Shown here: positions 26,129-34,343 of the stretch, piece by piece | How positions within the stretch are numbered: the first letter of the stretch is position 1 | Layout of the letters: every line of letters starts with the position of its first letter | Assembly: GCA_024655945.1 (NCBI GenBank) | Contig: JANLFK010000007.1 | Span: 133,123-197,122, forward strand | Direction: 5' to 3' | Source of the DNA: Candidatus Zhuqueibacterota bacterium | GTDB taxonomy: Bacteria > Zhuqueibacterota > Zhuqueibacteria > JANLFK01 > Oleimicrobiaceae | DNA: 64,000 bases | Made by a program: the position numbers and the translations under genes | The notes under the pieces: generated by a model | Databases searched by the model: none | Told to the model about the DNA's origin: nothing | Seen by the model: only the letters and a program-made list of their open reading frames with translations

Positions 26129-26524
26129 TCAGGCCCCATGACGGGCACACCCTTGGAAAGGCGCAGGAGGCGGCCCCGATGGATGGCGCGGCGCATCTTG
26201 CGCCTCTGCCAGATACGCTTTCACCAGGGCCTTGAAGAGCCGGCCGTGGTTGGGCACCTTGAGGTGCACCAGCTCGTGCACCATGACCTGCCGGCGAAAG
26301 GCAGGGGTTTGGGTCAGCGGTTCAACGCTCAGGGTAAGGCGCCCACGGGAAGAGAGGCTGGCCCACTTGCGCTTCATCGGACGAAGGTGAATTTCCCGGA
26401 TGCGCTCTTCCACACCGATGCGCCGCGCCCAGGCGTGGACTTCGGCCAGAAGGATGTCCCGTGCTACAGCCTCCTGCAAGGGTGCTCCGGACAAGCCCGG
26501 GGGTTCATCGCTCGTGAGCTTCAT
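26129..26524 (-). CDS. YgjP-like (DUF45/M48-family) zinc metallopeptidase-like protein accessory to the type I R-M system
   Basis: HELVHLKVPNHGRLF carries an HExxH motif. ATGA overlap with the hsdR stop. DUF45 genes commonly accompany hsdR. Confidence 0.65.
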   Translation of the reverse strand: MKLTSDEPPGLSGAPLQEAVARDILLAEVHAWARRIGVEERIREIHLRPMKRKWASLSSRGRLTLSVEPLTQTPAFRRQVMVHELVHLKVPNHGRLFKALVKAYLAEAQDAPRHPSGPPPAPFQGCARHGA

Positions 26525-29503
26525 TGCGCGGCCCTCCTGAGCAGGGTCAGCATCTCATCGGCCCAGGCGACCACATCTTTGACCCCCGCCTGTACCAGTT
26601 CACGGTAAAGTCGTCGGCGCAATTCCCGTTCCTGCGCTTCGCTCACCGCCCAATGGGGAAACTCCAGGAAGGCCGGCTCGACTGCAACTGCCAGGCGTTC
26701 GACCGGTGCCGCAGCGAATCCTTTTTGCACTCGCAGCCACCAGGCCACGGCAAAGGCCTCGGGGGAAAGATGGCTCTCCCGGCGCTGCTCCTGGGCTTCC
26801 TGAAGATCGCGAACCAGAGCGGAGAGTTCCTGCAATGCCTGCTGGCTGTTCACCTGCCGTTCCTCGAAGGCGCGGCGGATGGCCTCGGCGCGCTCGCCGA
26901 TGGGGATCAAATGCGGCTCCTCCTTGCCCCTGGCTTCCACCAGGCGATGCAGTTCCCTGAGCAGGTTGAACACCTTGACCGTATCCGGTTTGTCCTCGGC
27001 GATGAGGGCCAAAAGCGCTCCGGCCCCGATCGCCCAGGTGGGCGACGGTTCGCGCACCGCGGCGGTGGCCGTGTGCTTCTGCACGATCCCGGCGGTCTTG
27101 CGCAGGAAGGATTTGTCCACCGGCACGTGCGGCTCGTAGGCCGCCCGCAGCAGGCGGTACATCGCTACCAGCCGCTGGTAGTCTTCCAGGTAGGGACGCA
27201 GGAGGGGATCGGGCGAGAGGATTTCGTAGAGTTCTTCCAGTTCGCGGAAGAAGCGGTAGAAGGCCTCGCGGGTTTCTTTCTCGCGGAAGCGCAGCAGAAT
27301 GGCTTCGGCGATTTTGTCGTTGTTCAGCACAGAGGGCATAGATGAAGAATATGAGGGCTCTGTGTTCTCCGTGTGCTCTGTGGTGAGATATTCGACGCGC
27401 CCCTGTGAAATCAACTCCGCAAAGCGCCGCTGGAGCACCTCGATGCCCTCGACTACCCCGCTGACATCCTGGGAGTCGAAGGCCAGCGCCCGCTCCAGGT
27501 TCTCGAAGACGCCGACGAAGTCGAGAATCAGCCCGCTGGTCTTGCGGCGACCGGATTCGTCCTCATAGGGGCGATTGACCCGGGCAATCGCCTGGAGCAG
27601 CACATGGGCCCGCATGGGTTTGTCCAGGTACATGCAGTATAGGATCGGCGCGTCGTAGCCGGTGAGCGGTTTTTCGGTGACGATGAGGATCTGTGGCTCC
27701 TCGTCCGGTTTGCGGAACGCCTTGCGCACGACGGCTTCTTGCTCATCGCTCAGGTGATAGTGCCGCAGTTCGGCCGGGTCATTGCACCCGCGGCTGATCA
27801 CCACCCGGCTCATCTCCGCCGGCAGGTAGCGATCCAGGGCCTCCTTGTACAGGCAGCAGGCCTCCCGAGCCACCGCCACCACGAAGGCCTTGTAACCCAT
27901 CGGCGCGACATAGTCGGGAAAGTGCTTCGCCACGAAGCGGGCGATTTTGCCCACCCGCTCGCGGTTTTTGAGCATGTTCTTGAGGGTGACGGCGCGGTCA
28001 AGCACCCGGTTGAGTTCTTGCACATCGGCCACGCCCTCCAGTTCCGCCACGGCCCAGAATTCCTGTTCCATGGCTTCGCGGTCCACCACCAGGTCGTTGG
28101 GCGCCATCTGATAGTGCAGCGGCACGGTGGTACCGTCCTCAGTAGACTGGCGAATCGAGTATTTGTCCAGGTAGGGGCGACCCCGCGGGTCGCCCGCATC
28201 ATCGGCGCCGAAGGTCTTAAAGGTGCCCTTGCCGTGGACGCTGCGGTCAATGGGTGTACCGGTGAAGCCGATGAAGACGGCGTTGGGCAGCGCGCCCATC
28301 AGGTAGTTGCCCAGGCCGCCGCCGGTGGAGCGATGGGCTTCGTCCACCAACACGAAGACGTTGCGCCGCGGGCAGAGGTTGGCGGGCATGGCGTCGAATT
28401 TGTGGATCATCGAGACGATGAGGCCGCGCGTGTCAGCCTGAAGCAGGTCGCGCAGGTGACGTTTGGAGCGCGCCAGGTGCACCCGTCCGAAACCGACCGC
28501 TTCCAGGTTCTGGAACAGTTGGCTCTCCAGTTCGTTGCGATCGACGATGAGCAGCACGGTGGGATTGTCGAAACGTCCGTCCTCGATCAGGCGGCGGGCG
28601 ATGGTCAGCATGGTGTAGGTTTTGCCGGAGCCTTGCGTGTGCCAGATCAGGCCGCGGCGGGGCGCCTCGGGGGCGGTCACTGCCTGATAGGAACTCGCCA
28701 GGACGCGCTCGGTGGCGCGCATCTGGTGCGGGCGCAGGACGATCTTTTGCAGTTCGCCATCCTTGCGGGCGAAGAGGATGTAATCGGTGAGCACGCGCAG
28801 CACGCGCCGCGGGGCAACGAAGGACTTCACCAGGGTTTCGTAATCGGGCAGGGGCGCACCGCTCTGCGCCCCCACCTCGGCCCGCCAGTTGAACAGCGTC
28901 TTGCGCGAGAGCGACCAGGTGGGGCCGTAGAAGAATTGCACCAGGTGGGTCAGGGCGAAGAGCTGCGCCTCGGCCATCAGTTCGGGGCCTTGCTCGTGGT
29001 AGCGCCGAATCTGGTCAAAGGCCTCGGCGATGCCTTCCGGCCGGGTGGCGGCCTTGGTTTCCCCCACGATCACAGGGACGCCGTTCACAAGAAACACCAC
29101 ATCTGCACGGATGGCGGTTCGGCCGCTCACAAAGCGGAATTCGTCGGTGACGTGGAGAATGTTGGCCTCTGGGCGCTCGGCGTCCAAAAGGCGCAAGTTG
29201 CGTTCCCGCCGCTCGGCCTCCACAAACACGGTTTTCAGCCCCTTCAGATACTCCCAGGTTCCCCTCGATGTTGGGGCGGATGCGCACCAGGCGGCCGACC
29301 ACCTCCTCGGCTTTGCTGACGGAATCCACCACGCCCGGGTTGAGACGCTGGATCTGCTCGATGAGCACCGACCGCAGCACGGGGACCCCCTCGCCCCCGC
29401 GCAGACGCAGCGCCTCGCCGGGGGAAAGGTATTCCCAACCTGCTTCAGTGGCGTAGCGGATGAGCGGGTTTTGAACAATGTGGCGTTCGGAGGAGATGGT
29501 CAT
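26521..29503 (-). pseudogene. hsdR: type I restriction enzyme R subunit HsdR, disrupted by a +1 frameshift near 29255-29270
   Basis: The N-terminal 83 aa (MTISSERHIVQNP...RIRPNIEGN) are in ORF 29015-29503. The rest (TWEYLKGLKTVFVEAE..., nuclease domain, helicase motifs GSGKT, DEAH-like VLVDEAHRS, GFTGTP) is in ORF 26521-29478, one frame over. The junction lies in a GGGG/CCCC run (ATCGAGGGGAACCTGGGAG). Deleting one G restores NIEGTWEYLKG. Confidence 0.8.
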
Positions 29504-30174
29504 GGTGTGTCCTCCAAAAGATGGGGACTTGTAGAAGTACCGCGCTGCTGTGCCCCCTGGATCGTCTCCCAGATCTTTTGTGCCAATGGATCATCGCCTG
29601 TGCGCTCCGGGTTATAGCGATCCAGATGCAAACGCAACGGGTTTTCGGCAATATATTGGCGAATGACTTCCAAAGTTTTATCATTACGAATAATGTGTTC
29701 ATAATAGTTCCGTTGCCACAGAGAAACGCCATAGGTGTTGGATAACGCATTGGTTCGTTTGGTGACCGCAGATTTGAATTGGCAAACAATCGCGCCAATG
29801 GGTGATGGAACCGGACCACATGGCCGTTTCGTATGGCCAACCGATGTAGGGGCGACCCGTCGGGTCGCCCCTACATCAACGATCCAAATGATGCCGTGAA
29901 TGTGATTGGGCATGACCACGAATTCATCGGCCCGCAATGGCACATACGGACGAATCCGCGCGGTTTTAAACCATTCCTCGCGCACCATTTCACCCAGCGC
30001 ATTGAGCCGCATCACCCCGTCCACCACACGACCGAACAGGTGCGTTCGGTCGTGCGTGACGATGGTGATGAAATACGCCCCGGGTTGGGTGTAATCGTAC
30101 CCTTTCAGGCGAATGGAACGCCGGTGGTGACGGGTTGGGTCATACGGACACACGAGGTTCCTCCTGCCGAACAC
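29500..30174 (-). CDS. REP-associated tyrosine transposase (RAYT; IS200/Y1-transposase-like), copy 1
   Basis: GTG start. RSIRLKGYDYTQPGAYFITIVTHDRTHLFG, HUH motif NHIHGIIWI, catalytic Tyr region WQRNYYEHIIRNDK. Stop overlaps the hsdR start. A 35-nt palindrome sits inside the coding sequence. Confidence 0.8.
   Translation of the reverse strand: MFGRRNLVCPYDPTRHHRRSIRLKGYDYTQPGAYFITIVTHDRTHLFGRVVDGVMRLNALGEMVREEWFKTARIRPYVPLRADEFVVMPNHIHGIIWIVDVGATRRVAPTSVGHTKRPCGPVPSPIGAIVCQFKSAVTKRTNALSNTYGVSLWQRNYYEHIIRNDKTLEVIRQYIAENPLRLHLDRYNPERTGDDPLAQKIWETIQGAQQRGTSTSPHLLEDTP
29843..29877. repeat. REP-like perfect palindrome inside RAYT copy 1
   Basis: GATGTAGGGGCGACCCGTCGGGTCGCCCCTACATC. The 29-nt core GTAGGGGCGACCCG(T/C)CGGGTCGCCCCTAC recurs at 31483-31511 and, degenerate, at 28171-28195. 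It is translated in-frame as VGATRRVAPT. Confidence 0.8.
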
Positions 30175-33681: not shown

Positions 33682-33755
33682 CTTTGTCTCCTCCACAAGT
33701 GCCCTGCCGGCACAAAATGGATCAGTTCCCCGCTGCAAGGGGCGGACACGCTGCG

Positions 33756-34343
33756 TCACTCAGCAGAGGGCTCACCTCTTGCTGCGGCGGCCCTTTGCCC
33801 CAGGGACCACTCCTCTCTCAGGATGGCGTAGATCGCCGCGTCTTCGAAGGTGCCCCAGCGGAAGAGCGATTGCCGAAGCGTGCCCTCGTAACGCATTCCG
33901 ATTCTTTGCGTCACCCGCCCTGAAGCCGGGTTCTTGGTCATGTGCCGCGCCTGCACGCGGTTCATACCCAGCACGCGAAAGGCATAGTCCACCATGGCCT
34001 TGGCAGCGTCTGTGCAATACCCCTGGTTCCAATAGGGCCTGCCCACCCAATAGCCGAGCTCGGCGAGCTTGTTGGTGGCGTCGATTGCTGCATGGATTGC
34101 GCCGATGAGTTTCCCGCTATCCCTGAGGGTGATGGCCAGGGTAAGGGCCTGCCCGTTGTCATACGCTTGCTGGTGGGTGGCAATCCACTGTTCGGCCACG
34201 CCATCCCCATAGGGATGAGGGATAGCAGTGGTAGTTGCCGCCACTTCCCGAGCGCCGGCCAGTTCTCGGACGACGGGGGCGTCGTCAAGCCTGAACGGGC
34301 GGAGGATTAGCCGAGCGGTGCTTAACGTTGGCATTGCGGCCAT
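33756..34343 (-). CDS. GNAT-family N-acetyltransferase (RimJ/RimL-like)
   Basis: 195 aa. LILRPFRLDDAP..., acetyl-CoA-binding segment, WNQGYCTDAAKAMVDYAF. Confidence 0.8.
   Translation of the reverse strand: MAAMPTLSTARLILRPFRLDDAPVVRELAGAREVAATTTAIPHPYGDGVAEQWIATHQQAYDNGQALTLAITLRDSGKLIGAIHAAIDATNKLAELGYWVGRPYWNQGYCTDAAKAMVDYAFRVLGMNRVQARHMTKNPASGRVTQRIGMRYEGTLRQSLFRWGTFEDAAIYAILREEWSLGQRAAAARGEPSAE

Follow-up and report, generated by a model that had tools for sequence, protein, structure and literature searches.

The DNA analyzed here is a 64,000-nucleotide stretch (hereafter, the window) of contig JANLFK010000007.1, from a metagenome-assembled genome (MAG) of a Candidatus Zhuqueibacterota bacterium. 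It carries on its minus strand a type I restriction-modification (R-M) operon of the hsdM-hsdS-hsdR-ygjP family, among whose genes lie two genes for REP-associated tyrosine transposases (RAYTs, or TnpA_REP) and several repetitive extragenic palindromes (REPs). We consider it fairly probable that this operon hosts a REPtron, consisting of two TnpA_REP genes of subclass 2.4 with their cognate REP hairpins, in the cargo slot between hsdS and hsdR. The position of a RAYT next to hsdR recurs across phyla and in two unrelated HsdR families. The association of RAYTs with the operon is real and conserved, but a REPtron occupying the cargo slot explains the evidence better than an integral subunit of the restriction system does; nothing that we found shows that the transposases help restriction, and we hold a functional role to be unlikely.

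A reading made from the sequence alone had given the minus-strand order as hsdM, RAYT2, REP, hsdS, RAYT1, hsdR and a ygjP-like gene, and our analysis confirmed both the gene order and the domains (Table 1). Intragenic REPs and the cargo slot were already known; what appears to be new is the setting of RAYTs within a type I R-M operon, since in the searched literature we found no paper linking the two, although most subscription journals lay outside its coverage and absence is not proof.

RAYTs beside hsdR: recurrence, loss and probable exchange

Comparison loci, labelled with an L and a number, came from the genome, metagenome and homologue searches. For a RAYT-anchored sample, a RAYT alignment was compared with one genome per species and the best 80 loci among the matches listed were taken; a locus was called linked when type I hsd genes lay within 10 kb, and unlinked loci were assessed when they had at least 4 kb of flank on each side. 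Among these best 80, nine of the 45 assessable loci (~20%) were linked to type I hsd genes (L003, L006, L020, L030, L042, L052, L062, L063, and L065) and 36 had no hsd gene; against a baseline of 1%, which is our own estimate, the binomial probability of this count is ~1e-9. The order in linked loci was mostly hsdM..hsdS-RAYT-hsdR on one strand, with the RAYT usually just upstream of hsdR. About 80% of RAYT family members adjoin unrelated housekeeping genes.

All eight close homologues that were looked up, picked solely for long contigs or named organisms, lie in R-M or BREX-type loci. Chloroflexus aggregans DSM 9485 (CP001337) has the order hsdM-hsdS-RAYT-hsdR-ygjP with the same 14-nucleotide (nt) and 4-nt overlaps as the window, and further homologues occupy restriction-type loci in metagenomic lineages P0006 and P0017, Methylothermus subterraneus, a Caldilinea sp., and Rhodothermus marinus (AP019796). 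The homologue of Ardenticatena maritima stands beside a type IIG-like enzyme and an SNF2 helicase, and another (L170, 70% identical to RAYT2) is inside a BrxA-BrxB-...-BrxC cluster (L170:1724-6344). This last gene lies between an open reading frame (ORF) for a 663-amino-acid (aa) methyltransferase and a 640-aa ORF beginning near a GLRTSDNFRFLRFWWEV motif, with ATGA overlaps on both sides; a PglX or type IIG-like gene appears to be divided by it into a coupled pair of ORFs.

A metagenome scan with HsdM yielded 80 operons (HsdM 62-85% identical), 42 of which include hsdR. In nine of these 42 related operons a RAYT is present, whole or as a remnant, and in eight of the nine it separates hsdS from hsdR or stands at the 5' end of hsdR (L089, L090, L091, L092, L108, L109, L111, and L117); L160, with a RAYT between hsdM and hsdS, is the only other such case among the 42. 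The RAYT1-hsdR-ygjP part of the window locus follows the common pattern, and the position of RAYT2 is rare. The sequence-only reading had suggested comparing synteny to see whether hsdS is bracketed by RAYTs elsewhere; this arrangement was found in none of the 42, leaving the window locus unique in the sample.

Nor are the two window copies a recent duplication, as had been stated from the sequence: their protein identity is 56% (the earlier figure was ~60%), and in a neighbour-joining tree these old copies fall in different clades, the assessable members of both of which are all R-M-linked, with the other R-M-linked RAYTs scattered among unlinked copies. In a second HsdR family, which shares only ~30% identity with that of the window, a RAYT likewise immediately precedes hsdR (L006, L020, and L042). 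Where related loci continue past hsdR, a ygjP-like gene nearly always comes next. The RAYT family is rare on plasmids (5 of 72,556 records), and 2.9 million viral contigs contained two distant homologues and one locus with an exact match to the REP pattern. In L025, a UvrD-like helicase beside a distant RAYT homologue (L025:6465-9830) contains an intein (Intein_splicing and Hint_2 domains).

The slot that RAYTs occupy is a general one. Many close relatives have compact hsdM-hsdS-hsdR-ygjP operons with no RAYT in them, and the hsdS-hsdR slot also holds Fic, MNT/HEPN, PIN, RhuM, DUF559, DUF6088, Mrr-like, and SLFN-like genes. The hsdS-hsdR interval has been described as a recombination hotspot (PMC12255303), and genes are frequently embedded in type I R-M, BREX, and DISARM systems, according to a survey that counts mobility proteins such as transposases apart from defence candidates (bioRxiv 10.1101/2024.01.29.577857). 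RAYTs share both slot and co-orientation with embedded type I R-M cargo such as DarTG2 in enteropathogenic Escherichia coli (EPEC) and PrrC, in a place common to toxin-antitoxin modules, Fic, RhuM, Mrr-like, and DUF262-like genes; they differ from such cargo in being transposase-family enzymes with DNA repeats of their own and in matching no PADLOC model.

Overlapping junctions had led the sequence-only reading to regard the RAYTs as integral, co-translated members of the operon. The overlaps themselves are as described: the ATG of RAYT2 overlaps the TGA of hsdM as ATGA, with GGAGG 7 nt upstream, and an ATGA likewise joins the stop of RAYT1 to the start of hsdR. However, the hsdR start in this operon family is almost always GGAGG-N5-7-ATGA overlapping the stop of whichever gene precedes, whether hsdS (L119 and L130) or other cargo (L084, L108, and L120), so the overlap is a property of the junction and not of the RAYT. 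We therefore rejected ATGA overlaps as proof of integration, the same junction standing behind any gene, including hsdS in compact operons. What survives of the claim is that RAYTs are not stray insertions, the coupled RAYT-hsdR pair recurring across phyla; the rest is undercut by the generic ATGA, the abundance of RAYT-less operons, the decay of RAYT copies, and the uncoupled histories of RAYT and HsdR.

Decay is seen in L089, where an 82-aa remnant is left, in L109, which is frameshifted, and in L090, with a truncated copy in addition to a full one. Even the "RAYT-less" L085 bears a scar in its 73-nt hsdS-hsdR spacer (L085:12892-12964), where PYDPQRHHRR codons are joined to a degenerate REP and followed by the hsdR ribosome site. 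In L090 the truncated (L090:5658-5996) and full (7758-8399) copies flank a 609-aa cargo gene and share 80% nucleotide homology that stops exactly at the center of the intragenic REP, which indicates that REPs act as breakpoints; a break at the hairpin center would be explained equally well by recombination that the palindrome provokes and by RAYT action. The identities of RAYT and HsdR show no correlation within the HsdR family (Spearman rho = -0.04, n = 55 pairs; for L162-L168, HsdR is 89% and RAYT 62% identical), for which reason we rejected strict co-inheritance of RAYT with hsdR, and because of which the RAYT occupant appears to have been swapped or re-acquired many times.

An MNT/HEPN toxin-antitoxin pair in L163 (L163:8636-9441) lies between a 59-aa hsdR 5' fragment and the full hsdR, and the 87.5% nucleotide identity of the fragment to the real hsdR 5' end suggests cargo exchange via recombination between hsdR 5' ends of different operons. 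The hsdS-hsdR spacers of the RAYT-less L115 (L115:15790-15981) and L116 (L116:12875-13222) contain short repeats of a different and unrelated sequence, some tandem or palindromic in form; this spacer draws small repeat elements generally.

The RAYT proteins and their palindromes

Both proteins have the HUH motif and the class-2 Y---NP motif (NHIHG and RQYIAENP in RAYT1; NHVHG and RRYIAENP in RAYT2), and residues H84, H86, Y167, N171, and P172 (RAYT1 numbering) are invariant in 24 homologues. Scores against the curated families fall below the cut-offs, both for NCBIfam REP_Tyr_transpos (NF047646; RAYT1 63.4 bits, 2e-17; RAYT2 56.2 bits, 3.4e-15; cut-off 80) and for Pfam Y1_Tnp (22.1 and 19.9 bits, respectively; cut-off 23). 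With significant NCBIfam E-values and sub-threshold scores, RAYT1 and RAYT2 are divergent relatives and not equivalogs. More than 8000 relatives were found, the nearest to RAYT1 being 72% identical.

The best sequence match of RAYT1 in the Protein Data Bank (PDB) is 4ER8, the E. coli TnpA_REP bound to REP, in an alignment that matches the HUH strand and the WQ...EH..R...Y..NP region. The catalytic tyrosine of 4ER8, which we take to be Y115, has its equivalent in Y167 of RAYT1. A profile of the 24 homologues matched nothing among PDB sequences at E <= 0.1, and the link to 4ER8 comes from the single-sequence and fold searches only. For the latter, an AlphaFold (AF2) model of RAYT1 was used, with a mean predicted local distance difference test score (pLDDT) of 64 and values of 70-90 in the core; the loop encoded by REP-b is disordered in this model, since pLDDT is below 50 at residues 94-116. 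The top 20 Foldseek matches of the model in the PDB were all Y1 transposases (ISDra2, IS608, and 4ER8), and 4ER8 aligned with a root mean square deviation of 4.1 Å at 24% identity. RAYT1 and RAYT2 are Y1/HUH enzymes, placed in TnpA_REP subclass 2.4 (RAYT group 4) by their features and not by published subclass profiles. PADLOC, at E <= 0.01, returned no defence family for RAYT1, RAYT2, or the YgjP-like protein, and we know of no defence role for RAYTs. There is no tnpB-like ORF in the operon and no further RAYT copy in the window, and the RAYTs lack the subterminal end hairpins that are a hallmark of IS200/IS605 elements.

The sequence-only reading was right that a REP follows RAYT2, but the operon has four palindromes and not one. 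Folded as single-stranded DNA (ssDNA), REP-a reaches -16.9 kcal/mol (z = -5.0), REP-b -20.7 kcal/mol (z = -8.1), REP-c -11.4 kcal/mol (z = -2.5), and the palindrome inside RAYT2 -11.4 kcal/mol (z = -3.6). The GTAG...CTAC palindromes within and beside the RAYT genes have the GT[AG]G foot of REPs. The 29-nt element of the REP-a class has three copies in the 64 kb, all within the operon (the one in RAYT1 matching the pattern over 29845-29875), as against none in 100 shuffles, and the remaining 56 kb of the window contain no further palindrome of the REP class. REP-a and REP-b, which bound hsdS, are 97% identical. Because REP-a and REP-c have the stem of the palindrome inside RAYT1, from which that of the RAYT2 palindrome differs, RAYT1 looks like the cognate enzyme of REP-a and REP-c. 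REP-c adds six in-frame codons (DPRGRP) to hsdR, an insertion lacking in 10 of 10 orthologues compared, and so unique among 11 sequences.

Across the family, 51 of the 87 genes collected have, directly after the HUH motif, a palindrome whose stem is 12 bp or longer, and with the limit lowered to 10 bp the count at this site is 66 of the 87 homologues. The feet of this palindrome are conserved (GTAG...CTAC) and its center varies with compensating changes: nine of 13 stem pairs change on both sides and 98.3% of cells pair, a figure that is not independent evidence, as the set was preselected as palindromes. G-U pairs occur in 3 of 403 cells, and their near absence points to a DNA-level palindrome. 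With pairing almost purely Watson-Crick, RNA structure is unlikely as the reason for the intragenic hairpin.

Such an internal REP is not new, because the trait has been published for subclass 2.4, which is RAYT group 4 of Bertels et al. 2017 and has canonical GT[AG]G-footed REPs (Quentin et al. 2018, PMC6006769; PMC5581495), and in which in-frame intragenic REPs between the HUH and Tyr motifs are described as showing a "remarkable and unique" predominance (PMC6006769). The GTAG foot is required for TnpA_REP binding and cleavage in vitro, and some REPtrons, those of Marinomonas, have their REPs clustered close to the tnpA_REP gene (PMC8266576), as does the window. Further features that the window RAYTs have in common with subclass 2.4 are the HUH and Y---NP motifs, W-Q...R residues matching the part of 4ER8 that binds GTAG, canonical REPs that are long and have a GT[AG]G foot, an insert of in-frame REPs that varies between HUH and Tyr, low copy number, divergent copies, and a distribution scattered over phyla (PMC6006769, PMC5581495). 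They depart from the published subclass in that the genes here are inside type I R-M or BREX operons and coupled to hsd genes, a setting on which those publications are silent (the words "restriction" and "hsd" have 0 occurrences in PMC6006769), and in that REPs are inserted in frame in hsdM, hsdS, and hsdR. The earlier statement that RAYTs are normally solitary, with dispersed REPs, is apt for groups 2 and 3 but not for subclass 2.4 (group 4), which has REPs in its own gene.

Palindromes in coding genes have a parallel in the Rickettsia palindromic elements (RPEs), which Ogata et al. reportedly described in 2000 as inserted in coding genes. Like them, the palindromes here are short and in frame in coding genes, adding peptide in tolerated loops (DPRGRP in HsdR and VGATRRVAPT in RAYT1), but within the 64 kb they cluster round their putative transposase in one operon, in place of a genome-wide dispersal. 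Such insertions in coding genes are also noted in PMC6006769.

The clustering is not peculiar to the window. REP-class palindromes occur at 0.222/kb inside RAYT-bearing type I operons, as compared with 0.02/kb in the flanks of those operons and 0.02/kb in RAYT-less type I operons; by position, 16 are in RAYT genes, 10 in hsdR, four in hsdS, four in hsdM, and four intergenic. The stem is often that of the palindrome inside the local RAYT (L111, L063, L006, L003, and the window). With several REPs inside them, genes such as hsdR and hsdM of L166 are still called as full-length ORFs, and a REP splits hsdS into two ORFs in L091 and L172. REPs recur in hsdS (L091:12764-12791; L162:7305-7354; L166:7307-7334; L117:2661-2688; L111:3127-3160), and several of these appear, by position and not by mapping to domain boundaries, to be near mid-gene, between the target-recognition halves.

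Passenger, partner or accident

We envision that the RAYTs, having no promoter of their own, would be co-transcribed with the hsd genes and translated by coupling, and that the enzyme would bind single-stranded REP hairpins via the GTAG foot, cutting and rejoining DNA beside them, mostly in cis; such cis action would scatter REPs over the neighbouring hsd genes. The RAYT element would sit in the hsdS-hsdR cargo slot, a known hotspot, where it would be gained, exchanged, and lost by recombination, and it would persist because R-M operons are retained and move horizontally, not because restriction needs a RAYT. The window locus itself may be a composite, in which an "hsdM-RAYT2" piece was joined at REP-a to an "hsdS-RAYT1-hsdR-ygjP" module, because the RAYT2 ORF ends at the TAG of REP-a, a REP of the RAYT1 class, and because relatives of RAYT2 elsewhere precede hsdR (L091, L003, and L006).

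Several points weigh against a REPtron carried as cargo. No transposition-type boundaries (flanking REPs or a target motif) were found around RAYT1, and the activity of the RAYTs, their co-transcription, and their cis action are what we infer. The REP count of this MAG covers the 64-kb window and not the whole genome; the 20% linkage is possibly biased upward, coming from the best 80 loci of a sample seeded with R-M-linked sequences, and the baseline against which it was set, in which no more than 1% of genes taken at random have a type I system nearby, is our rough estimate. Two whole RAYT clades are seen only in R-M operons, catalytic residues are kept across phyla, and the RAYT stays next to hsdR even when other cargo is present. 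Motif retention and a fixed place beside hsdR are not what a purely selfish passenger would predict.

Alternatively, one could suppose that subclass 2.4 RAYTs are functional partners of HsdR-type restriction and of BREX, either through immunity by an ssDNA nuclease or by making R-M loci self-diversifying via REP-mediated exchange of hsdS or cargo. We regard such a partnership as unlikely. In a rather unlikely version of it, the RAYT is a working accessory of restriction (and BREX), a hairpin-directed ssDNA nuclease that adds immunity against DNA that enters or replicates in single-stranded form, or else tunes hsdR expression. This would account for the tight and recurrent adjacency to hsdR in both HsdR families, the restriction-type or BREX setting of all eight close homologues, the conserved catalytic motifs, and the two clades confined to R-M operons, and the "guilt-by-embedding" approach has correctly pointed to defence genes within type I R-M, BREX, and DISARM (bioRxiv 10.1101/2024.01.29.577857). 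However, many sister operons work without a RAYT, some of them with loss scars, RAYT copies decay, RAYT and HsdR histories are uncoupled, no PADLOC model matches, and about four-fifths of the family adjoin unrelated housekeeping genes. The viral contigs, with their single exact REP match and two distant homologues, offer no obvious target, and in the window it is hsdR that is probably dead while the RAYTs are intact.

That the RAYT and its REPs form a diversification device, in which segments bounded by REPs (in the window, the 1.64 kb from REP-a to REP-b that hold hsdS and the 5' half of RAYT1) are excised and exchanged as single-stranded cassettes, so that specificity genes and cargo would be swapped in the slot, strikes us as decidedly improbable. 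The near-identical REPs on either side of hsdS would suit such a device, as would REPs in or beside hsdS in other operons, often in the central conserved region (L091, L162, L166, L117, L111, L063, and L006), and the L090 RAYT fragment, which breaks exactly at a REP beside an inserted cargo gene. A similar idea was put forward for TnpA_REP and prochlorosin genes and later weakened by its authors (bioRxiv 10.1101/2020.03.09.984088). The picocyanobacterial case resembles ours in recurrent co-localization with a highly variable gene family (there lanthipeptides) and in unlinked phylogenies of the neighbours, but the partner genes differ, and operon embedding and translational coupling are not described there (bioRxiv 10.1101/2020.03.09.984088). 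Bracketing of hsdS by RAYTs was absent from all 42 other operons, there is no second hsdS and no pair of empty and filled sites for an hsdS cassette, and operons lacking a RAYT likewise differ in their cargo and have diverged in hsdS. In L090 the break falls at the hairpin center and not at flanking Y1 cleavage sites, so that palindrome-provoked illegitimate recombination fits it equally. The exchangeable hsdS cassette proposed by the sequence-only reading has nothing in its favour beyond the positions of the REPs, and inverted repeats are lacking as well.

A gene for a DNA-rearranging enzyme beside hsdS in a type I locus also recalls phase-variable type I R-M systems (S. pneumoniae SpnD39III/ivr and Mycoplasma hsd), in which integrase-family tyrosine recombinases act at inverted repeats among multiple hsdS copies. 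In the window, by contrast, hsdS is present once and without inverted repeats, and the enzymes beside it are of the single-strand Y1/HUH kind and not of integrase type; we rejected an hsdS shufflon on these grounds.

Most improbable, in our judgement, is that an insertion sequence (IS) of the IS200/IS605 type landed twice by chance or that the locus is an assembly chimera, even though the nearest Pfam model is Y1_Tnp ("Transposase IS200 like"), deposited records name the proteins "transposase", and the sequence comes from a MAG. The copies are far from near-identical, a tnpB partner and subterminal end hairpins are missing, and few members of the family occur on plasmids or in viral contigs. 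The same arrangement is present in complete genomes of cultured C. aggregans and R. marinus, two contigs longer than 200 kb carry the same HsdS, and linkage to hsd genes exceeds our estimated baseline. With the arrangement recurring and the hallmarks of an IS wanting, chance insertion was rejected.

The role of RAYTs and REPs for or against their hosts is a long-standing question. Subclass 2.4/group 4 shows a strong and repeatable address upstream of hsdR, and also in BREX, and its presence beside hsdR in cultured strains (C. aggregans and R. marinus) gives an experimental handle on RAYT function. If a functional partnership is true, RAYTs gain a concrete, testable role; if they are only passengers, R-M operons are long-term vehicles for a REPtron. 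For defence mining, it matters that embedded "transposases" are currently counted as mobility genes, apart from defence candidates, and the function of the system may be affected where inserted REPs give HsdM, HsdS, and HsdR extra peptides or break up hsdS.

The operon in the window

Table 1. Genes and palindromes of the RAYT-bearing type I R-M operon (positions in the window)
Feature	Position	Strand	Remarks
YgjP-like metallopeptidase gene	26129-26524	minus	Pfam YgjP-like 4e-19; start overlaps hsdR stop
hsdR, restriction and translocase subunit, interrupted	26521-29503	minus	Pfam HSDR_N, SWI2_SNF2, ResIII, T1R_D3
REP-c	28170-28199		REP-like palindrome inside hsdR; 2 mismatches to REP pattern
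RAYT1, Y1/HUH TnpA_REP-like, 217 aa	29500-30153	minus	GTG start; same call in deposited record
REP-b	29843-29877		17+1+17 palindrome inside RAYT1, in frame, encodes VGATRRVAPT; between HUH and Tyr motifs
hsdS, specificity subunit, two target-recognition domains	30140-31444	minus	Pfam Methylase_S 2e-59, 2 stretches
REP-a	31483-31511		Perfect 14+1+14 palindrome GTAGGGGCGACCCGnCGGGTCGCCCCTAC, 29 nt, GTAG foot; overlaps RAYT2 TAG stop; 38 nt upstream of hsdS ATG
RAYT2, Y1/HUH TnpA_REP-like, 198 aa	31508-32104	minus	ATG start; ORF ends at TAG of adjoining REP-a
RAYT2 internal palindrome GTAAGGGCGACACATGCGTGGCCCTTAC	31783-31810		Degenerate; at conserved family site after HUH motif; from hairpin scans
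hsdM, type I methyltransferase subunit, 526 aa	32101-33681	minus	Pfam N6_Mtase 2e-89, HsdM_N 4e-22; PADLOC MTase_I 5e-238
GNAT acetyltransferase gene	33756-34343		Upstream of hsdM

The 526-aa hsdM is the gene called in GCA_029907585.1, the longest ORF extending to 33759. For RAYT1, the GTG at 30153 is the likely start, being preceded by AGGAGG 6 nt upstream, called in the deposited record, and used by orthologues; the overlap with hsdS is then 14 nt, and the ~35 nt given by the sequence-only reading stems from the longest ORF (GTG 30174). The starts of RAYT2, RAYT1, and hsdR each have a GGAGG-type ribosome site within the preceding gene. By sequence prediction, which is weak evidence, the minus strand within the operon has no promoter-like or terminator-like site, and the sole good promoter-like site on that strand is upstream of the GNAT acetyltransferase gene.

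A tblastn search placed hsdS at one location in the window, and with the repeat scan it showed no second hsdS and no inverted hsdS repeat there; the gene has internal direct repeats of its conserved regions. The stretch from 29 to 32 kb has a G+C content of ~0.58, as compared with a window average of ~0.63, and the AT-rich parts of hsdS appear to be its two target-recognition regions, as one would expect if specificity domains are swapped horizontally.

Of the subunits of a type I system, HsdM and a two-domain HsdS are present, but HsdR is not intact, though all its domains are there. A frameshift at ~29253-29256 (minus strand) is due to an 8-nt deletion (GAGGCCTG) between short CTGG repeats, which removes the codons "EA" of the conserved NIEGN[LR]EAWEYLKG, a motif intact in 14 of 14 orthologues compared; the N-terminal 80 codons occupy the frame from 29503 to ~29254 and the remainder the ORF at 26521-29478. 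No gene is called at hsdR in the deposited record, and intact HsdR orthologues are 66-78% identical. If the deletion is not an assembly error, this MAG has probably lost restriction, with hsdM, hsdS, and both RAYTs intact, and the system would then probably be methylation-only.

GC skew is positive on the plus strand over nearly the whole window, and the cumulative skew climbs steadily. The minus-strand hsd-RAYT operon would then be on the lagging strand; Y1 enzymes favour the lagging-strand template.

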